NCBI GenBank assembly: GCA_016188355.1
Contig: JACPHY010000016.1
Span: 66,345-130,344 of the forward strand
DNA: 64,000 bases
Origin: Candidatus Uhrbacteria bacterium
Lineage (GTDB): Bacteria > Patescibacteriota > Patescibacteriia > JACPHY01
Reading direction: 5' to 3'
Below the pieces are notes generated by a model. That model searched no databases and was not told the DNA's origin. It saw nothing but the letters and a program-made list of their open reading frames with translations. The translations under genes were made by a program, and so were the position numbers. Numbering within the stretch: position 1 is the first letter of the stretch; every line of letters starts with the position of its first letter. Below are positions 2,988 to 31,416 of the stretch, piece by piece.

Positions 2988-5072
2988 ATGTCGATTCACT
3001 ACGCCAGTGAGCTCAATCCAGAGCAATGGGAGGTGGTGCGCCACGGTGATGGGCGGTGTCTCGTATTGGCGGGAGCGGGAAGCGGCAAGACGCGCACGGT
3101 GGTGTACCGGGTGGCCTATTTGCTCGAGCAGGGGGTGCTGCCGCAGGAGATTTTGCTGCTTACCTTCACCAATAAGGCAGCGCGGGAGATGTTGGAGCGA
3201 GTGGAAACACTGCTCGGTCGTCACCCGGCGGGGCTTTGGGGTGGAACGTTCCATCACATTGCCAGCCGGGTGCTTCGTCGCTTTGCCGCGCAAGTGGGAT
3301 ATTCGTCCAATTTTACGATTTTGGATGAGGAAGATACGCACGATCTCCTGCGTGCCTCGGTCAAGGCGCTCGGTATTGATACCACCGCGCGTCGATTTCC
3401 TGCGCCAGCCGTTCTGCGTGCAGTCATGAGTTTTCACAAAAATGCGCAGCGTCCGTTACCTGAGGTCCTTGAGGAGCGAAATGCAAAATTTGCACCACTC
3501 GCTCCCGCGATCGAAAACGTGATGCGGCATTACGACGCGCGAAAGCGTGCATCGAATGCCATGGATTTTGATGATCTCCTCCTGCATTTTTTGCAGGTGC
3601 TGCAAGCACCCGGGATTGCGCATTCATTTGCGCAGCAGTTCCGGTATGTGTTGGTGGACGAGTTCCAGGACACGAATCGTCTTCAGGCGGAAATAGTGTC
3701 TTGCCTTGCAGCGGCGCACCACAATCTCTTGGTGGTGGGTGATGATGCGCAATCGATCTATTCGTTCCGTGCCGCCGAAGTGGCGCACATCCTTCAGTTT
3801 CCGCAGCAGGCGCCGGGGACGCGCATGTTCCGCATTGAGACGAATTACCGTTCTACGCCGGAGATTCTGGATGTCGCGAATGCGGTGATTGCGAATAATG
3901 TGGAGCAATTTCCGAAGACGCTGCGTCCGGTGCGGGCGCGTCGGGTGCGTCCACAGCTCGTGCAGGCAACGAGCATGGAGGAAGAGGCGCGATATATTGC
4001 AAAACGCATCCTGGAGCTCCGCGATCAGGGAGTGCCACTCTCGGAGATTGCGGTGCTTTTCCGGGCGACCCACCTCTCTGAATTCCTCGAATTGGAGCTC
4101 ATGAAGCGCGATATTCCTTATGATTATCGCGGCGGCGTACGTTTCTTCGAGCGTGCCCATGTGAAGGATGTGCTCGCATTCCTGCGCATCCTTTCGAATC
4201 CGGCGGATATTGCCGCCTGGCTGCGGGTGCTGCAGCTCCAGGAGGGTATTGGCGATGCAGGGGCGGGCGATATTGCCGAGCGCATGCGATCCATGGCGAC
4301 GGCACAATCGGGTGCAGCGTGGATCCCGTGGCAGGTATCGGGGACGACACTGGTGTTGCCTCCGCGTCTCGAGCGCGGGTGGGACGCATTCTGCCGGATG
4401 GCGGGGCCGCTCCAGGCGATGGGAGATCCGGCGATATTGATTCGGGCACTGGTGCGCGGCAGTTACCGAGATCATGTGGAGGCAACCTATCCGAATGCGT
4501 CCGAGCGATTCGAAGATATTGAGCAGCTTGCGGTGTTTGCGGAGCAATACACGGATGTGGCTGCGTTCCTTGCGGACATGTCCCTGCAGGAGCGTTTTCG
4601 CGCAGAGCGGGTTGGCCCAAATGCATCAGAGCGCGAACGGGTGGTGCTCTCCACGATCCATCAGGCGAAGGGGCTCGAATGGCACGCGGTATTTGTGATG
4701 GGGCTCAATGCGAATACCTTTCCGAATCGTCGCTCCGTGCTCGAGGAGGGGGGGATCGAGGAAGAGCGGCGACTGTTTTATGTTGCGGTGACGCGCGCGC
4801 GTGACGTGCTCGCGTTGACGTACGCGCTCGCCGGGGGGCGCGATGCTGGATTCTTGGCAGCTCCCTCCATGTTTCTCCAAGAAATCGATGCCGGACTCCT
4901 CGAGCCTATTGCGGTGGGACGTCCGTTGGGGACGACTGCGTGGCATCGGCCGTCGGCGTCGCGTGCGATTACTGATTCGGATGACCCGATCATTGTGTTG
5001 GATGCACAGGGAGAACGCATGCCCGCGCCGCAGCGGCCGAGGAGTTTTTTGCGGGATGTGGATGACCTCTAA
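2988..5072 (+). CDS. uvrD: ATP-dependent DNA helicase UvrD/PcrA family
   Basis: Walker A GAGSGKT. Family motifs FTNKAAREM, DEFQDTN, VGDDAQSIYSFR, VLSTIHQAKGLEWHAVFV, LFYVAVTRAR. Confidence 0.9.
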   Translation: MSIHYASELNPEQWEVVRHGDGRCLVLAGAGSGKTRTVVYRVAYLLEQGVLPQEILLLTFTNKAAREMLERVETLLGRHPAGLWGGTFHHIASRVLRRFAAQVGYSSNFTILDEEDTHDLLRASVKALGIDTTARRFPAPAVLRAVMSFHKNAQRPLPEVLEERNAKFAPLAPAIENVMRHYDARKRASNAMDFDDLLLHFLQVLQAPGIAHSFAQQFRYVLVDEFQDTNRLQAEIVSCLAAAHHNLLVVGDDAQSIYSFRAAEVAHILQFPQQAPGTRMFRIETNYRSTPEILDVANAVIANNVEQFPKTLRPVRARRVRPQLVQATSMEEEARYIAKRILELRDQGVPLSEIAVLFRATHLSEFLELELMKRDIPYDYRGGVRFFERAHVKDVLAFLRILSNPADIAAWLRVLQLQEGIGDAGAGDIAERMRSMATAQSGAAWIPWQVSGTTLVLPPRLERGWDAFCRMAGPLQAMGDPAILIRALVRGSYRDHVEATYPNASERFEDIEQLAVFAEQYTDVAAFLADMSLQERFRAERVGPNASERERVVLSTIHQAKGLEWHAVFVMGLNANTFPNRRSVLEEGGIEEERRLFYVAVTRARDVLALTYALAGGRDAGFLAAPSMFLQEIDAGLLEPIAVGRPLGTTAWHRPSASRAITDSDDPIIVLDAQGERMPAPQRPRSFLRDVDDL

Positions 5073-5078
5073 AAGAAT

Positions 5079-6599
5079 ATGACGACCACGATTCGTTCAG
5101 CGCTGGGCGCATTGGGGGCTGGGGTATTGGTGACGCTGTTCTGGCAGATGTTTGTGCCATCCCTGCTAGGGCATGCAGATATATTTAGCGTAGGATGGTC
5201 GTATTTCCTCCTTGGATGTCTCGGGGTGCTCTTGGGACTCGCCGCGTGGTTGCGGCGATCGATTTGGGGATGGCCGCTGCTGCTGGCAGCGCCCATTGTA
5301 TTGCTGGCGATTGATGTGGCGCTCTATGCGAATCCCATTGGTGATTTTTGGGCGGGCATGGGCGGCATCGGGTTGTTGTTGGTGTTTGGATATTGGCTGC
5401 TCACCGAGCGCGCGTCGTGGACGGAGATGGGTTGGGTGGTGGGAGGTGAGGTGATTGCCGCGGGGCTTCGTACGATCCGCGGAGTCGCTGCGCTTTTTCG
5501 CACACTCGTCCTCCCTGGGGGAGAGCGTCGATGGGCGCGTGAGGTGTTGGTGGGTGTGTTGCTCGCCATCCCATTCCTGCTTCTGTTTACGGCGCTTTTC
5601 GCGAGCGCAGACGCATCCATCGAGCGGGCCATTACTCGATTGATTGACGAGGCAACGCTGGAGACGCTCGGGTTGGTGATTCGACGTACGGTGGTGGCGC
5701 TCCTGGTCGCCGGTTATCTGGGATCGTTGCTCCTCCTTCCGCGTCCGTTTTCGACAGGATCGGGAAGGGTGCGGGAGATTCGTCCGACGGTGGTGACCAC
5801 TTTTTTCCTCCTGCTCGATATATTGTTCGTGGCATTCGTGGTGTTTGAGGTGGTACAGCTCGTACGCATGCGGGGTGCGTTGGAGCAGACGTTCGTGCTT
5901 TCGGCGGTCGCGCGTCGAGCGTTTGTGGAGCTCGTGGTGGCGAGTTTGTTCGCGTATGGATTGGGCGTGCTCTGGTATCGGGTATTCCCCGAAGCGGCGA
6001 ATGATCGTGCGGGACGCCGCGCACGGGGGATGTTGATCGGATTTTTTGGCGCAACGATTGGAGTTGCAGGCATTGCGATGGCGCAGGTGCTGCAGTATAC
6101 GGCGGCGTATGGGCTTACGCGGATGCGCGTGTATGCGTGCAGCATGATTATTGCGATCACGCTCGGCATGGTGGTCATGTTGCGTGCCGCGGCTCGTCGC
6201 GTACCGTTCCTCCGACTTGGTCGGTGGTTGAGCGTGGGAATGATCGCGGCATTTGTGGTGATGATGACATTGCCGGTCGATCGATTGGTTGGCGAATGGA
6301 ACGTGCGTCGACAAGCGAAGCATCCCACGGTCCCGTTAGATGTGGATTATTTCCGACAGGATCTCTCTCTGGATGCAATGCCGGCGCTCGCGCGATACGC
6401 GCGAACCGATGCGGTGGCGCGAGCGTGGATTCTCGGTACGCGCTGTCGTGTCGTCGAGGATTTAGATCCGCAGTATTGGGATAGGCAAGTAGATAACGAG
6501 CAGGTATTGTCCGCAGATTGGCGCGCTTGGAACTACTTCGCATACCGATGGTGTGCGCAGCTGCCGCAATTGAAAGAGGAATTGCGTGCGCTGCCTTGA
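5079..6599 (+). CDS. Polytopic integral membrane protein, function unknown
   Basis: At least 10 hydrophobic helices. Starts 7 nt after the uvrD stop. No recognisable catalytic motif. Confidence 0.6.
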   Translation: MTTTIRSALGALGAGVLVTLFWQMFVPSLLGHADIFSVGWSYFLLGCLGVLLGLAAWLRRSIWGWPLLLAAPIVLLAIDVALYANPIGDFWAGMGGIGLLLVFGYWLLTERASWTEMGWVVGGEVIAAGLRTIRGVAALFRTLVLPGGERRWAREVLVGVLLAIPFLLLFTALFASADASIERAITRLIDEATLETLGLVIRRTVVALLVAGYLGSLLLLPRPFSTGSGRVREIRPTVVTTFFLLLDILFVAFVVFEVVQLVRMRGALEQTFVLSAVARRAFVELVVASLFAYGLGVLWYRVFPEAANDRAGRRARGMLIGFFGATIGVAGIAMAQVLQYTAAYGLTRMRVYACSMIIAITLGMVVMLRAAARRVPFLRLGRWLSVGMIAAFVVMMTLPVDRLVGEWNVRRQAKHPTVPLDVDYFRQDLSLDAMPALARYARTDAVARAWILGTRCRVVEDLDPQYWDRQVDNEQVLSADWRAWNYFAYRWCAQLPQLKEELRALP

Positions 6600-7370: not shown

Positions 7371-8390
7371 GTGTACGATGGGTTCGATATGCCCGAACGG
7401 TCGACGGTCCCTCCCATCGAAAAGTTGCGTGCGATGTCAGCACGGCGCACTGCATTGTTGGCGTGGTATAGGGAATACGGCCGCCATGACCTCCCTTGGC
7501 GGCATACGCGCGATCCGTACGCGATCCTCATCTCGGAGGTGATGCTCCAGCAAACGCAGGTGGATCGGGTGCGATCGTATTGGGATGCTTGGATGCGGCG
7601 ATGGCCTACGGTACAGGCGCTCGCGCGGGCGCGGCGAGGGAGCGTGATTCGTGCGTGGGCGGGACTTGGATATAATCGTCGCGCGGTGTACCTGCATCAG
7701 TGTGCGCAGTATGTCACGACGCATCCGTGGTGGGGGGAATTGTTTTCCTATTCGCACGAATTAGCGAGTAGGAGTGTGGGGAATCGGGGATTCAGTGATG
7801 CGGAGGATGTAGAGATGGGGGCGTTGATTGCGGGTGTGCGCGGAGCGTGCGCAATGTGGCGTGGTGCCGTATTGCAGAAACGAATAACAAAAATTGCACG
7901 GATGTTGGAGGAACTTCCCGGCATTGGTCCGTATACGTCTCATGCGCTCCTCGCCTTTGCGTGGAATCTGCCCGCTCCCTGCGTGGACACGAACATTCGG
8001 CGCGTCCTCGCGCACATCATTTACCATCGGCCCGACATCATGGCCATGTCTGTTCCCGAGGTGATGCGGCTGGCTGCTCGGGTCATTCCTCCCGATTACG
8101 GTCGAGAATGGAATTATGCGCTCATGGATTACGGGGCACTCGTTTTTCAGGCGCGGCATGTACCCAATCGCACGAAGCGCGTGGTGGCCCCATTCAAAAA
8201 TTCCACGCGATACTGGCGGGGACGTATCGTGGCGGTGCTGCGGGAACATCGTCGGCCGCTGCCGCCCGCCGTGGTGCGTCAGCGTCTGCGCGTGCTCGGC
8301 GAGTGCACGGAAGATGTGGATGCGTTGCTGGTGGCATTGGTTCGCGATGGAGTGCTTGCACAGCATGACGCCGGCTTTTCGCTCGCATAG
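7371..8390 (+). CDS. mutY: A/G-specific adenine DNA glycosylase MutY
   Basis: HhH-GPD motifs (LPGIGPYTSHALLAFAW). Fe-S cysteine region. The C-terminal NUDIX-like MutY domain is present. N-terminus WYREYGRHDLPWR is typical. Confidence 0.85.
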   Translation: MYDGFDMPERSTVPPIEKLRAMSARRTALLAWYREYGRHDLPWRHTRDPYAILISEVMLQQTQVDRVRSYWDAWMRRWPTVQALARARRGSVIRAWAGLGYNRRAVYLHQCAQYVTTHPWWGELFSYSHELASRSVGNRGFSDAEDVEMGALIAGVRGACAMWRGAVLQKRITKIARMLEELPGIGPYTSHALLAFAWNLPAPCVDTNIRRVLAHIIYHRPDIMAMSVPEVMRLAARVIPPDYGREWNYALMDYGALVFQARHVPNRTKRVVAPFKNSTRYWRGRIVAVLREHRRPLPPAVVRQRLRVLGECTEDVDALLVALVRDGVLAQHDAGFSLA

Positions 8391-8438: not shown

Positions 8439-9353
8439 TCAACCGCGAAGCGCGCGCAGCATGCGTTCGTGCGTCTCCTGGTCGCGCGCGACGAGGAGTT
8501 GAGGAATTTTCTGTTCCGGAAAATCGAGGTAGCTCGGGATGGGGCCTCCGGTGAACGTGCTCACGATGCCACCGGCTTGTTCCACGATCCATGCCATCGC
8601 ACCCCAATCAATGAGCGGTGCGTTTGTTTTAGCGACACCCGCGATGTTTCCGGTGAGCATGTCATGCGCGGAGAGCGCCCACTGCGGTGTGGGGTGGCGG
8701 TCGTATTCTTCGATCGTCACCACATCGAATTGGGCGCGGAGTTGCTGTTCGGTGGACGGATCGCAACCCTCCAAGAAGAGGCGATTCGCTTGCGATTGCT
8801 CCGTGGTGAGCGGTGATTCCTCGCCGAGGAGCGATGACTGCAGCATCGTGAATGCGCCTTCTCCGGCGATGGCGTAATACGCGCGTCCGAATGCGGGCAG
8901 GTACACCACCGCGGCGACGATGTCGGGGCCATGCGTCAAGGTGCCGATCACATCGAAGTGGGGGAATCCTTCACGGTAGAATCGGGTCCCATTCACGGGA
9001 TCGAGCCAGAAGACGTGCTCGGCATCCGGTGGGAAGTAGCGCAGGTTGAGGGAATGTTCGGCTTCTTCTGGAGCGAATCGCACCGGAATTCGTTCTCCGA
9101 GCAGCGTGACCTCGAAGAGTGTCTGGATGGAGAGGTCGGCATCGGTGAGTGCGGCAGCGAAGAGATTGCGCACTCCTTCCTTATCGCGTGATCGGATGCG
9201 GGATTGGACGGCGAGCGCATACTCGCCTGCGGCAATGAACGTGGGGAGGAGACTTCGGATGAATCGTCCGTATTCGATGGGCACGGGGCTTCCTTTCTTG
9301 CAAAGGGCGAACAACCTGCACCGATCCTCGCACGGGAAGGAGATCGGCGTCAA
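8439..9353 (-). CDS. Inositol monophosphatase / FBPase / CysQ-family phosphatase (paralogue 1)
   Basis: IMPase signature WLDPVNGT(R/K)xY. C-terminal …WGAMAWIVEQAGG… Its start overlaps the malic enzyme stop by 4 nt (ATGA). Paralogue of 10938..11807; both end in …ALRG. Confidence 0.75.
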   Translation of the reverse strand: MTPISFPCEDRCRLFALCKKGSPVPIEYGRFIRSLLPTFIAAGEYALAVQSRIRSRDKEGVRNLFAAALTDADLSIQTLFEVTLLGERIPVRFAPEEAEHSLNLRYFPPDAEHVFWLDPVNGTRFYREGFPHFDVIGTLTHGPDIVAAVVYLPAFGRAYYAIAGEGAFTMLQSSLLGEESPLTTEQSQANRLFLEGCDPSTEQQLRAQFDVVTIEEYDRHPTPQWALSAHDMLTGNIAGVAKTNAPLIDWGAMAWIVEQAGGIVSTFTGGPIPSYLDFPEQKIPQLLVARDQETHERMLRALRG

Positions 9354-10937: not shown

Positions 10938-11807
10938 CTATCCGCGGAGCGCGCTGATGATACGTTCGTGCACCGCGCGATCGCGGGAGCAGACGAGTCC
11001 GGGAATGCGCTGATCGGGATAATCGAGATAGTTCGGAATAGGATTGCCCGCGAAATCGCTCACGCATCCTCCCGCATGCTCCACGATCCATGCCGCCATG
11101 CCAAAATCGAGGAGCTTTGCGCGGGGCTTCACGATCGCCGCGGCATCACCAGCAAGAACGCTCGGCACGCCGTACCGCCATTGCTGTGGATTGGGACCTG
11201 GATACGTGGAACACGCGATGGTGTTGCCGTCCGCACGGAGTCTGGACATCGCCGCCGGATCGATGTGTTCGTCCCAGACAGCGATCGCGGTGCTCTCCGG
11301 GCGGAGCCGTAGTGGCTGTCCGCCCGTCGGGAGCGAGAGGGAGAGACCTTTGAGTGAGTCGAGGAGATGGATGCTGCGGGGGCCGGACAGTCCCTCCACC
11401 ATGACATACGCGCGTCCTTGGTGTGGCATGCAGTACACGCCCGCGACGATGGTGTCACGACGGAGCAGGGTGCAGGCGATACCGAAGTACGGAATGCCGT
11501 CCGCGTAGTACTTGGTGCCGTCGATCGGATCGAGGAGCATCATGTGATTCGCGTCGGATGGGAAGTAGCCAATATTGAGGGAGTGCGCTGCTTCCTCAGG
11601 ATCGAAGCGGATCGGATAGCCGGCGCTCAGGAGTTCGACCTCGAAGAAATTCTGGACCGAGAGATCCGCGTCGGTGAGCGCGCGGGTGAACGGATTGCCG
11701 CCTTTCTTTTCCGGTTGCAGTCGTACGCGGGATTGGATGGCGACGGCGTACGATCCTGCAGTGACACAGCAGCGGAGGAGGTGATTCACGAAGTTGATGT
11801 AGTTCAC
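10938..11807 (-). CDS. Inositol monophosphatase-family phosphatase (paralogue 2; GTG start)
   Basis: LLDPIDGTKYY motif. Aligns along its length with 8439..9353 (…AVAIQSRV…, …WIVEHAGG…, …ALRG). No in-frame ATG near the start; GTG at 11807. Confidence 0.7.
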   Translation of the reverse strand: MNYINFVNHLLRCCVTAGSYAVAIQSRVRLQPEKKGGNPFTRALTDADLSVQNFFEVELLSAGYPIRFDPEEAAHSLNIGYFPSDANHMMLLDPIDGTKYYADGIPYFGIACTLLRRDTIVAGVYCMPHQGRAYVMVEGLSGPRSIHLLDSLKGLSLSLPTGGQPLRLRPESTAIAVWDEHIDPAAMSRLRADGNTIACSTYPGPNPQQWRYGVPSVLAGDAAAIVKPRAKLLDFGMAAWIVEHAGGCVSDFAGNPIPNYLDYPDQRIPGLVCSRDRAVHERIISALRG

Positions 11808-11828
11808 GACTTCTTGCTTTCTCGCGTT

Positions 11829-13058
11829 TCAGGGTTGCGGATGATGCTCGGCGGTTTTCGCCACGAGCGGCGCGATGCACTTCATGTTGAGGAGCACGAT
11901 GCCGAGCGTGAGCACGCCTGCTCCGAGGCTCATGCCGAGCTGGAGGGCACTCGGGAGGCTCGTAAATTGTTCCCCCCACGCCGTGCGGGCAATGGCGTAC
12001 GCAGTAATGCCGCCGAGCGGAACATCGACAGCACACATGAGTCGGATTTCCGTATGGACGAGTCGCACGAGCAGGACGAAGAACTTCCCGAGCGCGATCG
12101 GCCAATGCCAGAGGAGGTGCGAACCGATCGCCCAGAGGCACCGGAACGACCAACGGACGATCGCGCGGAGTGCCTGCCCATAGAGCAGGATGGGCGCCCA
12201 CCAAGGCTGCAGGGAAAACGGATTACTGAGGAGATCCTGCGCGCGCATTTGGCGCTCGAAGGTGCGTGCGTCTCGCCCGATCTCTTCGCGGAGTGCGCGA
12301 AGTTCCGGGTCTTGCGCGTCGGTGGCGGGCGGCACATCCATTGCGGCGCGCCGGAGCGTCAGCCGATCTGCCCACCGTTCCGTCCACGTTTCGTTGCCGA
12401 GGATGCCCACGAAGATGCTGGGAAGAACCCAGAGGACGACCGCCCAGAGCACCGCGGCGAATACGGCAACGCCCAGCGGGCCGAATGCGCCGAACACGAG
12501 ACCGCCCAACGGGCAGGCGACGGCGATCGCGATTCCGCATCCGACAAATACCATGTAGGCTCGATTTGCTATTTTTCCTGGGAAGTCTCCCGGTGGTGCA
12601 TCGGTCGAGGCGATGCCGATGAACAGGACGAGGATCGGGATAATCCAGGGGAGATACCACCCACCCATCTCTGCTCTCATCCAACCGCCAGCTGCGGAAA
12701 ACGCGGGGACGTTCGGTACGGCGAGCGAGTAGGCGATCCATCCGGCCGCGATGGCGACCACCACGGAGTACCAGAACATGGGGCGGAACCCACGGAAGAA
12801 GGTGCGTAGCCCGCGGCGCGAGGTGGACATCGCGGCGGCGACATTCGGCATCGTTTCTCTGGCCACCTTCGGAATCGCCGCGACCACCGCGCCGGTATGC
12901 GGACCGACGTATCCAATGATTGCGCCGAGGACGATGCTGATCCCGAGGGCGGGAATCGCACCGAGCGCGGGAACGAGCGTGAGCATGCTGAGGTACACGA
13001 GCGCGCCGCCACCCACACCCGTGGCGACGACGTTGACCATGCGCGGATTCGGGTGCAT
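11829..13058 (-). CDS. Integral membrane protein, function unknown
   Basis: Start at MHPNPRMVNV (rc ATG 13058) with GGAGGG SD 3-4 nt upstream. Multiple TM helices. The longer ORF N-terminus is extension. Confidence 0.55.
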   Translation of the reverse strand: MHPNPRMVNVVATGVGGGALVYLSMLTLVPALGAIPALGISIVLGAIIGYVGPHTGAVVAAIPKVARETMPNVAAAMSTSRRGLRTFFRGFRPMFWYSVVVAIAAGWIAYSLAVPNVPAFSAAGGWMRAEMGGWYLPWIIPILVLFIGIASTDAPPGDFPGKIANRAYMVFVGCGIAIAVACPLGGLVFGAFGPLGVAVFAAVLWAVVLWVLPSIFVGILGNETWTERWADRLTLRRAAMDVPPATDAQDPELRALREEIGRDARTFERQMRAQDLLSNPFSLQPWWAPILLYGQALRAIVRWSFRCLWAIGSHLLWHWPIALGKFFVLLVRLVHTEIRLMCAVDVPLGGITAYAIARTAWGEQFTSLPSALQLGMSLGAGVLTLGIVLLNMKCIAPLVAKTAEHHPQP

Positions 13059-13231
13059 AGACCCTCCTTGGTTCTGTTGTGAACGAACCGTACGATCTGG
13101 CGCAACTGTAGGGGGAGCGACATCTGCTGTCAATGGGAGCGGCGGAGGCACGGTGTCTTCGTTTCTGTGTGGTTCGCGTTGCATTCGTCCACTGCGTTGA
13201 TGGCGCGAATGCGGTACGATGCGAATGTGCT

Positions 13232-14383
13232 ATGCGTCACCTCACCGTCTCTGAATTTTTGCAGGGCATCAACGACGTGCTCTCCGGAGTTCCCGCACTC
13301 ATTGAGGGCGAGGTTTCTGGTTTTGCAATTCGCCAAGAACGATGGGTCTTCTTTTCCCTGAAAGACGCTTCGGGAATCGTGGACTGCTTCATGCCGATTT
13401 GGAAGTTGCGACACGAAGTTGCGGATGGCATGCTCGTGCGCATTGCGGGAGTGCCGGGCGTGTATGCAAAATCTGGCCGATTTCGCATCACAGTGGAAGC
13501 ACTGGAGCCGGTGGGTGAGGGGAGTCTTCGTCGTGCGTTTGAGCTCCTCAAGCAGAAACTAGAACAAGAGGGAGTCTTTGCGGCTGCGCGCAAGCGATTG
13601 CTCCCCCGGTTCCCATCGCGGATTGGTCTCATTGCTTCATCCGAATCGGCAGCGTACACCGATTTTGTTCGCATCTTGAAAAACCGCTGGGGTGACGTAG
13701 AGATCCTGGTGCAGGACGTGGCGGTGCAGGGAGCGGATGCCATTGATGATATTTGCGGAGCTTTTCGGTGGTGGAGTACTGCGCGCGGTGATCGTCCCGA
13801 GGTGCTCGTGCTCATCCGTGGAGGAGGTTCACTCGAAGATATCCAGGCGTTTAATGCGGAGGCTGTGGCGCGCGCCATCTTTGCATCACCGATCCCCGTG
13901 GTGGTCGGTGTGGGTCATGAGCGAGACATTACCATTGCGGATTTGGTTGCAGATCTTCGCGCATCCACGCCATCGAATGCCGCGGAGCTTGTGGTCCCCG
14001 ATCGACGGGAAATTTTGGCGGCGATTAATGGACATTCGGAGGGCATGGCAATGACGCTGCGGATGCGTGTCGCGCGCTGTCGGAGTGCGGTGGATCGTTT
14101 TCTCTTTCATGGCACCGCGTTCGCGCATGCTCGTCTCGTCCGTATTGATGCACTGGTGCATGGTATCGCACACCGCGCGCGGCTGCGGATGATGGAGACA
14201 CGGACGCGGATCGATGGGGCCGAGCGGCTCCTCGAGAATTTGAACCCCCTCCGTATGTTGGCGCGTGGGTATTCGCTAACATGGGTGCGAGGCCGATTGA
14301 TTCGTTCCGCGAATACCGTGGCACGCGGTGATGTGGTCCACACGCGTTTTAGTGACGGAGCAATCGACGCAGTGGTGCAATAA
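13232..14383 (+). CDS. xseA: Exodeoxyribonuclease VII large subunit XseA
   Basis: N-terminal OB fold (MRHLTVSEFLQGINDVL…EGEVSGF…). Central catalytic region. Followed by xseB. Confidence 0.85.
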   Translation: MRHLTVSEFLQGINDVLSGVPALIEGEVSGFAIRQERWVFFSLKDASGIVDCFMPIWKLRHEVADGMLVRIAGVPGVYAKSGRFRITVEALEPVGEGSLRRAFELLKQKLEQEGVFAAARKRLLPRFPSRIGLIASSESAAYTDFVRILKNRWGDVEILVQDVAVQGADAIDDICGAFRWWSTARGDRPEVLVLIRGGGSLEDIQAFNAEAVARAIFASPIPVVVGVGHERDITIADLVADLRASTPSNAAELVVPDRREILAAINGHSEGMAMTLRMRVARCRSAVDRFLFHGTAFAHARLVRIDALVHGIAHRARLRMMETRTRIDGAERLLENLNPLRMLARGYSLTWVRGRLIRSANTVARGDVVHTRFSDGAIDAVVQ

Positions 14384-14438
14384 TCCGCTATCCACAAGGT
14401 ACGGATGCGTAGGAGTGTGCGACAATGCACGTCACGGT

Positions 14439-14696
14439 ATGACCAAGCGGAAAACAACATTTGCAGAAGCATTTGGCGAGCTCGAGGCCATCGCGCGATG
14501 GTTTGAGCGTGACGCGGTTGATATCGAGGAGGGGCTCGAGAAATTCGAGCGTGGTATGGCGCTCGCGAAGGAACTCCGGCAGCGCCTCACCGATGCGGAG
14601 GTGCGCATCCAGAAGATTGAGGAACGTTTCGCGCCTCCGGAATCACCCGACCGCGCGGATTGCGACCCCACCACCACGGAGCCTCCGTCATTTTGA
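14439..14696 (+). CDS. xseB: Exodeoxyribonuclease VII small subunit XseB
   Basis: MTKRKTTFAEAFGELEAIARWFE…LEKFERGMALAKELRQRL is the canonical XseB helical hairpin. Confidence 0.8.
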   Translation: MTKRKTTFAEAFGELEAIARWFERDAVDIEEGLEKFERGMALAKELRQRLTDAEVRIQKIEERFAPPESPDRADCDPTTTEPPSF

Positions 14697-14699
14697 GAT

Positions 14700-15518
14700 A
14701 TGGAAAGAATTCTTGTTTTTGATATTGAAACGCAGAAGGAGTTTGCGGAGGTGGGCGGCGCGCACAATCGTCATTTACTGGGGGTTGCGGTCATCGGTTG
14801 TTACGATTCCGGAACGGATACGTACCTCACCTTTGAAGAAAAAGAGGTGCTCGCATTCGGAAAATTGCTCCGCGCCGCAGATTTGGTGATTGGTTTTAAC
14901 AGCGAGCACTTCGATCTCCCGGTGCTCCAGCCGTATTTGCCGTTCGATACATCGAAAGTGCCCTCACTCGATCTCATGAAGGAGCTCGAGCGGCATCTGG
15001 GGCATCGCGTGTCTCTGGATTCGTGTGCGGAGGCGACGCTCCAGCAGAAGAAATCTGGTGATGGTCTTCAGGCGATTCGATGGTTCCGTGAGGGAAAAAT
15101 TGATCAGGTGAAGAAATACTGTTTGGATGATGTCCGCATTACGCGAGAGCTGTACGAGTACGGGTGTCAGCATGGGCAGGTGTATTTCATGGGGAAGGAT
15201 GGAGCGAAGCGCGCGGTCCCTATTGCTTGGGGTTCGGGGCCGGGGAAGAAAACTCCGGTACGTACCGTGCTCGAGGAGGCACTGCGCCGTGGGCAGCGTG
15301 TGGAGATCGAATATGTATCTACGATGGCCGCGGAGGGTGAGGATCATCGGAATCGGCGGAAGATTGATGTACTGAGCGTGCATGGTGATGTCGTAGATGC
15401 GTACTGTCATCTTCGGAAGGATACCCGACGCTTCGCGATCGACCGCATCACTGACATCGTACTCCTGAGCGAAACCACGGATGCCGCATTGCGGATGGGG
15501 CAACATGCGCTCCTCTGA
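14700..15518 (+). CDS. DEDDy-type 3'-5' exonuclease (RNase H-like fold) fused to a C-terminal WYL domain
   Basis: Exo I VFDIET. Exo II GFNSEHFDLPVL. Exo III YCLDDVRITRELY. C-terminus RVEIEYVS…RKIDVLSVHGDVVDAYCHLRKDTRRFAIDRI fits the WYL domain pattern. Starts 4 nt after xseB. Confidence 0.65.
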   Translation: MERILVFDIETQKEFAEVGGAHNRHLLGVAVIGCYDSGTDTYLTFEEKEVLAFGKLLRAADLVIGFNSEHFDLPVLQPYLPFDTSKVPSLDLMKELERHLGHRVSLDSCAEATLQQKKSGDGLQAIRWFREGKIDQVKKYCLDDVRITRELYEYGCQHGQVYFMGKDGAKRAVPIAWGSGPGKKTPVRTVLEEALRRGQRVEIEYVSTMAAEGEDHRNRRKIDVLSVHGDVVDAYCHLRKDTRRFAIDRITDIVLLSETTDAALRMGQHALL

Positions 15519-15619
15519 GCGCGATGCGTCTTGACGGTTGGGGCATGTTTGCGTACGCTCGTCGTACGTTGTTCTTTGTATTGGTATTGCGTGATGCCTG
15601 ATATCAGGCGGGAGGATCC

Positions 15620-16279
15620 ATGCGACGACCGATTCGGCGGATCATGTTCTGGGATTATAACGGGACATTGCTCCACGACTGCATGTACGTGTACGAGGGT
15701 TACGTGCACGTGTTCCGACGATTTGGAATCGCGCCGCCTCCATTCGAGGTCTGGCGAGATCAGGTGGTGCCCGCATATCCCACGTTCTACTGGGAGTGTG
15801 GAATTCCGTGTTCCGTATCCGGTGAGGAGATCAACGCGCTGCTCCTCGAGGCGCTCGCCACGATCGCGCCGCCACTCCCGTTTCCCGATGCAGTAGAGGT
15901 AGTGCAGCATTGCGCATTCGCGGGGATTACATGCATCGTGGTGAGCGGATTCCCGAAGGACCACATTATTGCGACACTCGACCGCTTGCAGTTTCGTGCG
16001 TGTTTTGCGGATGTGGTCGGCACGATTGCGCAGAAGACGCTCACGCTCCAGCGGTACCTTGCTGCATTTCAGTGCGCCCCCCACGAGGCGCTGCTCGTGG
16101 GCGATACGGTGTTCGATGCGGAGGCAGCGCATGCCGCATCCATTCCCTCCTGTATCTGTCCGCGAAGTGGCTACCATCCGCGCGATCGCATCGAGGGCGC
16201 GCGAGCACGCATCCCGAGTATGACGATTGTTGAGGATCTGCATGCAGTGCTGCGGCACGTTTTTGAGGAGGATAGTTGA
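15620..16279 (+). CDS. HAD-superfamily hydrolase (phosphoglycolate phosphatase-like)
   Basis: Motif I MFWDYNGTL (DxD-like). Motif IV VGDTVFDAEAA. Overall HAD size. Confidence 0.55.
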   Translation: MRRPIRRIMFWDYNGTLLHDCMYVYEGYVHVFRRFGIAPPPFEVWRDQVVPAYPTFYWECGIPCSVSGEEINALLLEALATIAPPLPFPDAVEVVQHCAFAGITCIVVSGFPKDHIIATLDRLQFRACFADVVGTIAQKTLTLQRYLAAFQCAPHEALLVGDTVFDAEAAHAASIPSCICPRSGYHPRDRIEGARARIPSMTIVEDLHAVLRHVFEEDS

Positions 16280-16287
16280 GGATGCAC

Positions 16288-16319
16288 GGAGGCGAGCGCA
16301 TCGCCTCCGTTTTGCTGTT
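16288..16319 (+). terminator. Rho-independent terminator GGAGGCGA-gcgca-TCGCCTCC + GTTTTGCTGTT
   Basis: 8-bp GC stem plus U-tract, 9 nt after the HAD stop. Confidence 0.65.
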
Positions 16320-16524
16320 ACGAGGGCGGTATTGACGGTGTACCGTCGGGTTGGTACGTTAGAGATCCACGCCGGAGACAGCGGCCGCCGATCTCCCGAA
16401 ACGGATTTCGGCTTAATCTGCCGCCGAGGCAAAGCTCCCACTCGCATTTGTGAGTGGATGGTCGATGCTTTGACGTGCCGGCGGGCACGTTATTTTGTTT
16501 GGTCGAATCATTCGACGAATTTGC
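16320..16524 (+). promoter_or_regulatory. Structured 5' leader of the rplJ-rplL operon (putative L10 leader / attenuator)
   Basis: About 200 nt of non-coding sequence before rplJ with several hairpins: CCACTCgcatttgtGAGTGG, and ACGTGCC-ggcg-GGCACGT followed by TATTTTGTTT at 16473..16500, 24 nt before the rplJ ATG. Position matches the autoregulatory L10 leader known in many bacteria. Confidence 0.45.
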
Positions 16525-31069: not shown

Positions 31070-31179
31070 GGGGACGATCGGCTTCGACGGTGGATGGAGG
31101 TGCTCGAATGGAGCGCTCCGGCATCGCTCGCCGCGGTGCGTATCTGCCGGACGCGGGTTCGACTCCCGCCGTCTCCATC
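31070..31179 (+). ncRNA. ssrA: tmRNA (ssrA)-like tRNA-like domain; unusually compact (about 110 nt), no tag ORF detectable
   Basis: 5' GGGGACGATCGGCTTCGACGG matches the tmRNA 5' acceptor + D-loop-analogue consensus. 3' GGACGCGGGTTCGACTCCCGCCGTCTCCA matches T-arm + acceptor. The 7-bp acceptor pairing has a G3-U70 wobble and A73 discriminator (alanine identity). There is no stop codon in any frame across the 65-nt middle segment. Confidence 0.5.
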
Positions 31180-31416
31180 GGATCGTGGGGGAACCTTCCG
31201 GTTTCCCTCCCGTGCCCCCTTCCCTCCAACCAGGTCACTTGCTCCCTCCGTATGTGGGGTCGGGCAAAGCCCTTCTTCCCCCACATACTCCGGTCGCTGC
31301 GCTCGGGATCGGATGGGGTCCATGATGGGCATCTTGAGGAATCCTCTTGTTTGGATTCCTCTTTTTTATTCCATGCACACGGGTTGTTTTGGTATTTGGT
31401 ACGATACAGGAAACGT

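Follow-up and report, generated by a model that had tools for sequence, protein, structure and literature searches.

A lineage-wide DEDDy exonuclease-WYL fusion of Patescibacteria and relatives, a candidate DNA 3'-end-processing enzyme with a clamp-binding-like tail

The described bacterial proteins that most resemble the exonuclease-WYL fusion analyzed here, which is encoded in a 64,000-nucleotide (nt) stretch of a Candidatus Uhrbacteria genome (assembly GCA_016188355.1, contig JACPHY010000016.1, forward-strand positions 66,345 to 130,344; hereafter, the window), are known from proofreading, DNA repair and the binding of single-stranded DNA (ssDNA). Mycobacterial DnaQ is an additional proofreader bound to the sliding clamp DnaN, and it needs a C-terminal Q[Y/L]ALF motif for this binding (PMC11348249). 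In general, bacterial β-clamp-binding motifs follow the consensus QL(D/S)LF, which tolerates variation, and they usually lie in flexible termini (PMC6511837). A second relevant enzyme is MrfB, an exonuclease of the DEDDh type with His258 as its general base and a TPR domain, which in structure most resembles family-B polymerase exonuclease domains and NrnC (PMC11194089). Modules in which an MrfA/YprA helicase is linked or fused to an MrfB-like exonuclease have been assigned to DNA repair (bioRxiv 10.1101/2025.09.15.676423). As to the WYL domain, those of PafBC, DriD and CapW are reported to bind ssDNA through conserved arginines, and those of Pif1 and PafBC bind ssDNA or have been modeled to do so (PMC9964779; PMC11804915). 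The WYL domain of Thermotoga elfii Pif1 (TePif1) is reported to be an accessory ssDNA-binding module that supports helicase activity (PMC9964779). Makarova et al. 2014 (PMC4012209) mentioned in a single sentence the fusion of a WYL domain to a '3'->5' exoRNase'; beyond that sentence, we found no study of this family in the literature on WYL domains in connection with exonucleases, DEDD proteins or Patescibacteria.

On balance, our results lean toward a model in which the window protein is a clamp-tethered 3'-5' DNA exonuclease whose WYL domain binds ssDNA, although our confidence in any specific pathway for the protein is much lower. It would be a DNA-end-processing enzyme of three parts, namely a DEDDy exonuclease core, an ssDNA-binding WYL domain and a clamp-docking tail. 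Held by the β clamp at a gap or at a primer-template junction, the enzyme would grip the adjacent ssDNA with its WYL domain, and its exonuclease would trim a 3' end that could be mismatched, damaged or displaced. Such an enzyme could serve Patescibacteria and their relatives as an accessory proofreader or as a repair trimmer of 3' ends or flaps, possibly in cooperation with a UvrD-like helicase or with exonuclease VII in the lineages where those genes adjoin it.

The exonuclease core is of the type found in family-B polymerases and in PF13482, and it ends in two strands with a conserved P174..W177. RNase_H_2 (PF13482), a Pfam domain that InterPro names after YprB/MrfB, matched at residues 7-154 (E 5.6e-10; 39.8 bits, above the threshold of 22), and DNA_pol_B_exo2 (PF10108) also passed its threshold (26.3 bits against 24). 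The full DEDDy set of D8, E10, N67, D72, Y140 and D144 is invariant in two alignments, one of 40 homologues that are 42-73% identical to the window protein (A1) and one of 20 sequences comprising the core and 19 exonuclease domains of other architectures (A2); because the Exo III motif carries Tyr140, the core is assigned to the DEDDy subtype. An AlphaFold2 model built from the 40-homologue alignment, with a mean predicted local distance difference test score (pLDDT) of 90.4 and a predicted template modeling score of 0.77, lays out an alpha/beta exonuclease core followed by two linker strands, a helix and a five-stranded barrel. When the N-terminal half was compared with the PDB by Foldseek, exonuclease domains of family-B and T7 polymerases were returned with probability 1.0 and a root-mean-square deviation (rmsd) of 3.1-3.6 A over about 200 columns. 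The best of these structural matches (Thermococcus, Pyrobaculum, Pol delta and Pol epsilon) are only 14-21% identical in sequence, and the Exo II and Exo III motifs line up with those of Pol delta. The top PHROG match is 'DNA polymerase exonuclease subunit' (E 5e-18), and there are weak profile matches to NrnC and nanoRNase C (E 0.03-0.13). The core is predicted to be catalytically active because its DEDDy residues are invariant, its fold matches proofreading exonucleases and its top PHROG match is of the same kind.

In our search of representative sequences, this core of about 178 residues occurs in four settings: alone, in proteins of about 180-200 amino acids (aa); with a WYL domain behind it; with about 100-200 residues in front of it, among which an MrfA Zn-binding domain was seen in the cases scanned; and at the C terminus of proteins of about 800-1,180 aa that carry DEAD, Helicase_C, WHD_HRQ1 and MrfA Zn-binding domains and thus are MrfA/YprA-family helicases. 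The window protein is 49% identical to one standalone form, and its core shows 44% identity, over 181 aa, to the exonuclease at the C terminus of P0204, an MrfA-type helicase. The preliminary description of this locus had overlooked this kinship. A rough neighbor-joining tree places the helicase-fused and N-terminally extended forms in one half; in the other, WYL-bearing and WYL-less standalone forms interleave, which suggests that the WYL domain was repeatedly lost within one clade or that some gene calls are fragmentary. Because the close relatives of the core are fused to MrfA-type DNA-repair helicases, we infer that the window protein is a DNA enzyme.

The same kinship bears on a somewhat different model, in which the protein is an MrfB-like excision-repair exonuclease that pairs with a UvrD/PcrA-like helicase rather than with the clamp and degrades the helicase-displaced strand during adduct or mismatch repair. 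The protein is indeed a PF13482 member with a core closely related to the MrfA-fused exonucleases, it shares with MrfB its family-B polymerase and NrnC structural neighbors (PMC11194089), and a UvrD-like helicase gene lies upstream on the same strand in 19 of 76 surveyed loci, often 15-50 nt away. However, MrfB combines a DEDDh active site with a TPR domain, whereas the window protein combines a DEDDy site with a WYL domain, and the helicase regions of the MrfA-type proteins P0204 and P0218 had no tblastn match in the window or in the fetched loci. In addition, profiles built from A1 and A2 did not retrieve the B. subtilis MrfB chain from the PDB sequences even at E<=10, the presence of that chain in the copy searched being unconfirmed. 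We consider this model unlikely as stated, and it overlaps with the clamp-tethered one, as clamp tethering and helicase cooperation are compatible. An MrfB orthologue was likewise considered and rejected on the differences in active site and accessory domain, the lack of a nearby MrfA and the failed retrieval; MrfB is a related and functionally suggestive relative, not the family to which the window protein belongs.

The second part of the clamp-tethered model concerns the WYL domain. A Pfam WYL match (PF13280) spans residues 189-253 (E 7.1e-07; 29.6 bits, above the threshold of 21.8), and in the AlphaFold2 model a helix at residues 187-197 precedes five strands between 199 and 259, giving an Sm-like barrel. 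For the C-terminal half, Foldseek returned WYL domains of BrxR, CapW and PafBC with probability 1.0 (for BrxR 7qfz, an rmsd of 2.5 A over 84 columns). By Pfam and in the model, the protein has neither a helix-turn-helix (HTH) nor a WCX domain, and merely 13 residues follow the WYL domain. Within A1, Y205, R220, C236, R239, R243 and F245 are invariant and H237 and R249 nearly so, R249 being present in at least 90% of sequences. Searched against PDB sequences, the family profile gave its best matches to Pif1 WYL regions (8BNV, E 2.5e-6; 8BNS, E 6.8e-6) and to PafBC (E 3e-6), and it also matched the WYL domain of PafC, the whole group ranging from E 2.5e-6 to 2.6e-5. R239, R243 and R249 align with R491, R495 and R501 of DdPif1; at position 246, the equivalent of DdPif1 R498, the window protein has Ala where most family members have Arg or Lys. 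By analogy with these proteins, the WYL domain most likely binds ssDNA through its conserved arginine patch, because its best profile matches are the Pif1 and PafBC domains and the arginines align. The preliminary description had proposed a DEDDy exonuclease fused to a WYL domain and had looked to a structural model for an Sm-like fold. Both proposals hold: the two domains pass their Pfam thresholds, profile searches recover the WYL domain, the DEDD residues are all present in the alignment, and the predicted helix and five-stranded barrel match the domains of known WYL proteins.

The third part is the C-terminal tail, whose conserved clamp-binding-like motif had gone unremarked in the preliminary description. 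The window protein ends in …GQHALL and its close Uhrbacteria relatives in GQHALF, GQYALF or GQGALF, and across the family the extreme C terminus follows the pattern Q-x-[S/T/A]-L-[F/L]. This motif is present in 58 of 76 species-level members versus 3 of 374 conserved neighboring open reading frames (ORFs), giving a Fisher p of 6e-53 that serves as an index and not as a true probability, since the sequences are related. It is likewise found in 71 of 152 fusions, as compared with 1.8 of 152 when the last 25 residues are shuffled. Standalone exonucleases with a tail of 8-45 residues carry it in 18 of 33 cases, some in a hexamer-like form (LTLPF, LTLPL, QMTLGV). None of the 47 helicase-fused or N-terminally extended forms has it, and the majority of these end a few residues past the last strand of the core. 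The ten residues ahead of the motif are variable while the motif itself is fixed at the terminus, and its third position, which lay outside the search pattern, is still S, T or A. In the AlphaFold2 model, confidence is low over the final 12 or so residues, with pLDDT dropping to 66 and then to 46 at the last residues, and the tail is presumably flexible. We predict that QHALL most likely binds in the hydrophobic cleft of the β sliding clamp, because the tail matches both the β-clamp-binding consensus and the motif of mycobacterial DnaQ. In a subgroup mainly labeled Omnitrophota, Aerophobetes or Planctomycetales (loci L002, L009, L016, L018, L020, L022 and L028 and about 49 proteins such as P0052-P0121), a different, well-conserved tail peptide, Y-x-[IV]-P-x-DFVPTA-x-x-E, takes the place of this motif.

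The choice of DNA over RNA as substrate deserves particular attention, as the protein could instead process or turn over RNA in the manner of the 3'-5' exoribonucleases RNase D, RNase T or NrnC and use its WYL domain to bind RNA. Makarova et al. labeled the nuclease partner of the WYL domain an exoRNase, the core has the weak NrnC and nanoRNase C profile matches given above, and WYL1 of Cas13d is reported to bind single-stranded RNA (PMC6547453). The gene also adjoins rplJ-rplL in the window, and YchF is a frequent neighbor elsewhere. Nevertheless, the closest relatives of the core are fused to MrfA-type DNA-repair helicases, its best structural and profile matches are DNA polymerase proofreading domains, and the clamp-binding-like tail suits a DNA enzyme. 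The suggestive neighbors are also DNA enzymes (XseAB, UvrD and a PD-(D/E)xK nuclease). A function in RNA metabolism is thus a rather improbable alternative to the clamp-tethered DNA exonuclease.

One clear implication of our study is that the fusion is common. With a word-indexed search, 1,970 clusters (90% identity) were retrieved at E<=1e-3, and nearly all of the best 120 of these are 265-295 aa long, mostly with the same two Pfam domains. An exhaustive profile search of 1.84 billion representatives returned 5,125 proteins at E<=1e-3, of which 510 reached E<=1e-30. Relatives were confirmed in at least 568 GTDB species, each represented by one genome, and among the GTDB matches listed, most record titles are Patescibacteria, Omnitrophota or Aerophobetes. 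The Patescibacteria lineages named are Uhr-, Sung-, Komeili-, Kerfeld-, Giovannoni- and Niyogibacteria and Parcubacteria. Curated phage and plasmid collections contained no close relatives and gave one weak partial match each. Because of this broad spread over species and the lack of close phage or plasmid relatives, the exonuclease-WYL protein is a chromosomal, lineage-wide family and not a rare fusion. The preliminary description had called the fusion unusual, a view contradicted by its abundance and by its earlier listing by Makarova et al. Two different exonuclease-WYL genes (loci L040 and L049) were found in a single metagenome-assembled genome (CAYXAG01), either as paralogues or as a product of a mixed bin.

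Gene neighborhoods were surveyed in 80 species-level GTDB loci with crude gene calls, with products clustered and cluster representatives annotated with Pfam; the exonuclease gene could be placed in 76 of these loci, and the gene tables of nine further loci were added. Several arrangements recur. In one, the order is YchF(-) / UvrD-like helicase(+) / exonuclease(+) / FolD(-), which includes loci of the UvrD-linked group described above. In Kerfeldbacteria, the order is xseA / LytR-family gene / PD-(D/E)xK Cas4/RecB-like nuclease / exonuclease. The genes found upstream on the same strand therefore include xseAB in Uhrbacteria, the UvrD-like helicase in 19 of 76 loci and the PD-(D/E)xK nuclease in Kerfeldbacteria, all of which are consistent with the clamp-tethered DNA exonuclease. 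The clamp-binding-like tail likewise points to DNA replication or repair rather than to phage defense.

Two of the neighboring genes merit separate description. At L025, L058 and L073 (Kerfeldbacteria and a Patescibacteria record), the PD-(D/E)xK nuclease lies directly upstream with gaps of -20 to +16 nt; it matches PF12705 at 131.5 bits, has a weaker Cas4 match and a C-terminal Cys cluster, and at L058 and L073 xseA lies two to three genes farther upstream. In a further arrangement, DoxX / exonuclease / PF04308 'RNaseH_like' gene, the PF04308 (DUF458) gene lies directly downstream on the same strand in 22 of 76 loci (for example, L003-L006, L010, L013, L014 and L021), often overlapping the exonuclease gene or within about 35 nt of it, and it is kept where the exonuclease has lost its WYL domain (L056, L057 and L075). 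A functional pairing of the exonuclease with the PF04308 gene is possible.

The link to exonuclease VII, by comparison, is restricted to one clade. The preliminary description rightly placed the exonuclease-WYL gene in tight physical linkage with xseA-xseB, as 3 nt separate the end of the xseB stop codon (14696) from the exonuclease ATG (14700), but this linkage does not extend to the family: only 4 of the 80 species-level loci have xseA or xseB within 6 kilobases (kb). In the Uhrbacteria clade, whose other members are 62-73% identical to the window protein, xseB is directly upstream in 6 of 8 loci (the window, L001, L081, L083, L087 and L088) and within two genes in 7 of 8, and all of these loci lie just upstream of rplJ-rplL. 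Where the public gene call gives them, the gaps between xseB and the exonuclease gene in L081, L083, L087 and L088 are 2-26 nt. In Uhrbacteria, xseAB, which encode another ssDNA exonuclease, and the exonuclease-WYL gene thus probably form an operon with translational coupling.

This coupling would be explained if the exonuclease were a dedicated partner or third component of exonuclease VII, acting in an XseAB-exonuclease complex. The short gaps are in keeping with that idea, as is the lack of any terminator-like site between xseB and the exonuclease gene in a consensus scan. Even within the clade, however, L082 has no xseAB, and in L089 an ornithine/arginine decarboxylase gene separates xseB from the exonuclease gene. 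Most family members sit beside unrelated genes, and no family-wide co-variation with xseAB was seen. A dedicated complex is very unlikely on this evidence, and the xseAB link is a trait specific to the Uhrbacteria clade that would represent a lineage-specific grouping of ssDNA-degrading functions and not an obligate partnership.

The idea that the protein is a ligand-gated nuclease in, or responding to, phage defense, with a WYL domain that senses a nucleotide or oligonucleotide signal, is the least credible of those we considered and was rejected: WYL domains are common in defense regulators, PADLOC CRISPR-associated WYL models match the C-terminal domain (E 1.4e-10) and Foldseek matches it to BrxR and CapW, yet the protein lacks HTH and WCX domains and is an enzyme rather than a regulator, the gene is widespread in small genomes at a position stable within each lineage and has no close phage or plasmid relatives, and the WYL regulators characterized so far (CapW, PafBC and DriD) sense ssDNA and not a second messenger (PMC11804915). 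Its surroundings agree, in that no defense gene or defense island was found near the gene in any of the 88 surveyed loci, where the neighbors include FolD, YchF, UvrD, ribosomal protein genes, ClpB and Lon. Two flanking genes, xseA and the HAD gene, were also scanned with PADLOC and gave no match, and the exonuclease-WYL protein itself matched generic WYL models only. Of the functions that the preliminary description had offered, a DNA-damage factor is compatible with our findings, whereas a defense or phage-responsive role is not borne out.

Several observations nonetheless weigh against a clamp-tethered DNA exonuclease with an ssDNA-binding WYL domain. Clamp-binding motifs are short and degenerate, and the window version ends in L-L, not L-F. 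A subgroup mainly labeled Omnitrophota, Aerophobetes or Planctomycetales has another conserved tail and no clamp-like motif, and the WYL-less exonucleases of some lineages indicate that the WYL domain is not essential to the function of the core. The exoRNase label given by Makarova et al. (PMC4012209) and the RNA binding reported for Cas13d WYL1 (PMC6547453) count here as well. Finally, no polymerase, clamp or clamp-loader gene recurs as a conserved neighbor in the surveyed loci, and much of the context is ordinary housekeeping synteny (FolD, YchF, DoxX and the ribosomal proteins L10 and L12).

In a more ambitious version of the model, the replisome of Patescibacteria would rely on this family as its main proofreader or 3'-end editor in trans. 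The β clamp would recruit the family-B-polymerase-type exonuclease, template ssDNA bound by the WYL domain would switch it on or position it, and it would replace a canonical DnaQ epsilon subunit in these reduced genomes. Large neighboring ORFs were considered as replisome genes and rejected, as they encode ClpB, Lon, a Ser/Thr kinase-TPR-GAF protein, an M28 peptidase and a glycosyl-hydrolase-like protein. Because these large neighbors are not polymerase or replisome genes, the gene context lends no support to the proofreader idea. We regard a principal role at the replisome as doubtful.

The coordinates of the gene, its domains and its flanking features are collected in Table 1. The ORF contains the strings FDIET, NSEHFDLP, YCLDDV and AYCHLRKDTRRFAIDRI, and a protein identical over all 272 aa is deposited at NCBI as a Candidatus Uhrbacteria 'ribonuclease H-like domain-containing protein'; no NCBIfam model matches it. 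For both exonuclease VII genes, the public gene call on the identical contig has an alternative start, an ATG at 13133 for xseA (416 aa) and a GTG at 14415 for xseB (93 aa).

Table 1. Positions in the window of the exonuclease-WYL gene, its domains and motifs, and flanking features
Feature	Position	Strand	Evidence
xseA, exodeoxyribonuclease VII large subunit	13232..14383	+	TIGR00237 342.9 bits (cutoff 180); Pfam Exonuc_VII_L and OB fold
xseB, exodeoxyribonuclease VII small subunit	14439..14696	+	TIGR01280 53.3 bits (cutoff 35); Pfam Exonuc_VII_S
Exonuclease-WYL gene, 272 aa plus stop	14700..15518	+	ORF, Pfam
DEDDy 3'-5' exonuclease core, residues 1-179	14700..15236	+	Pfam, alignments, Foldseek, 44% identity to P0204
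Exo I motif D8-x-E10 (FDIET)	14721..14729	+	Invariant in alignments A1 and A2
Exo II motif N67...D72 (NSEHFD)	14898..14915	+	Invariant in alignments A1 and A2
Exo III motif Y140-x3-D144 (YCLDD)	15117..15131	+	Invariant in alignments A1 and A2
WYL domain, residues 187-259	15258..15476	+	Pfam PF13280, PADLOC, profile matches, Foldseek, model secondary structure
C-terminal peptide Q268-H-A-L-L272, resembling a β-clamp-binding motif	15501..15515	+	Motif enrichment, low-confidence tail
Weak terminator-like hairpin 3' of the exonuclease-WYL gene	15551..15569	+	Consensus scan only, not above chance number
HAD-family phosphatase gene, downstream of the exonuclease-WYL gene	15620..16279	+	Pfam HAD_2 and Hydrolase

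A promoter and terminator scan of the locus gave weak, consensus-level hints, with a terminator count not above chance. The strongest terminator-like hairpin of the region lies at 16286-16310, after the HAD phosphatase gene, which may be the last gene of the exonuclease-WYL transcription unit; L089 likewise has a HAD gene (5023-5670) downstream of its exonuclease gene. Because greedy longest-ORF calling in a window of 59% GC yields long shadow ORFs, public gene calls were used for context. For the same reason, the ORFs at 11367-12809 (+, 480 aa) and 15407-16447 (-, 346 aa), which lie opposite the gene for a 451-aa membrane protein and the HAD gene, are probably shadow ORFs and not genes.

Other features of the window were noted in passing. 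A UvrD-like superfamily 1 helicase (694 aa; 2988-5072, +) and an HhH-GPD DNA glycosylase (7371-8390, +) are encoded 6-10 kb 5' of xseA on the same strand, and similar upstream arrangements at L083 (helicase and glycosylase) and L087 (glycosylase, the locus ending before any helicase) make up a loose DNA-repair neighborhood. Inositol-monophosphatase-family paralogues at 8439-9284 (-) and 10938-11807 (-) lie on either side of a malic enzyme gene, upstream of the xseA region. At 31070-31180 (+), a match to the Rfam transfer-messenger RNA (tmRNA) model RF00023 (70.2 bits against a gathering score of 47) spans model positions 1-374 within 111 nt; there, ARAGORN predicts no tmRNA but an 85-nt tRNA-Ala (anticodon cgc; 31095-31179). 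This element could be a lone tRNA-like domain, a permuted or two-piece tmRNA, or an odd tRNA.

Our results bear on genome maintenance in Patescibacteria (the candidate phyla radiation). These organisms account for much of bacterial diversity and have minimal genomes, and the means by which they replicate accurately and repair their DNA are little understood. The family described here is a concrete candidate for a replisome- or gap-associated 3'-end editor in these organisms. If the model is correct, it would extend to nucleases the ssDNA sensing by WYL domains that has so far been found in transcription factors and Pif1 helicases, and under the proofreader version this would be the first WYL domain to sense ssDNA as part of a nuclease, the others doing so in transcription factors or helicases. 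Should the clamp motif or ssDNA binding fail, an ordinary DEDD exonuclease with an accessory domain remains. All of the components belong to known kinds, and the fusion of exonuclease and WYL domain has been listed since 2014; the family itself, its breadth in Patescibacteria, its kinship with the MrfA-fused exonucleases and its clamp-like tail appear to be undescribed.

In comparison with known systems, the core comes structurally closest to the proofreading domains of family-B polymerases and to the standalone 'PolB-exo-like' proteins of PF10108, whose threshold it passes, but it is accompanied by no polymerase domain and its identity to the polymerases is low (14-21%). With the MrfB/YprB type, it has in common that the PF13482 threshold is passed and that the structural neighbors are family-B polymerase exonuclease domains; the window protein differs in using Tyr and not His as its general base, in lacking a TPR domain and in having no MrfA nearby. 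The MrfA-fused exonucleases are closely related in the sequence of the core, but they have neither the WYL domain nor the C-terminal motif. The WYL fold and arginine patch are those of the winged HTH-WYL-WCX factors PafBC, DriD, CapW and BrxR, for the characterized members of which the ligand is ssDNA arising from DNA damage (PMC11804915); unlike these factors, the window protein is an enzyme, has no HTH or WCX domain and lies outside any defense or SOS-like regulon context. Bacterial Pif1 proteins (TePif1, DdPif1 and SsPif1) are similar in organization, as they too join a WYL domain to a DNA-processing enzyme and not to an HTH domain and conserve the arginines implicated in ssDNA binding, although their catalytic partner is a superfamily 1B helicase and their WYL domain is the very last element, with no tail motif.

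In architecture, the window protein parallels the noncanonical DnaQ of mycobacteria. The two proteins differ in that DnaQ pairs a DEDDh exonuclease with a BRCT domain, whereas the window protein pairs a DEDDy exonuclease of the family-B polymerase/PF13482 type with a WYL domain and has a predicted, rather than known, interaction with the clamp, and the likeness is one of analogy, with no homology beyond the superfamily level. Within that limit, the layout is shared: in both, a 3'-5' DEDD exonuclease is joined to an accessory domain and ends in a clamp-binding-type peptide at the extreme C terminus, and the peptides are nearly identical, Q[Y/L]ALF in mycobacterial DnaQ (PMC11348249) as against QYALF or QHALF in the Uhrbacteria relatives and QHALL in the window protein.

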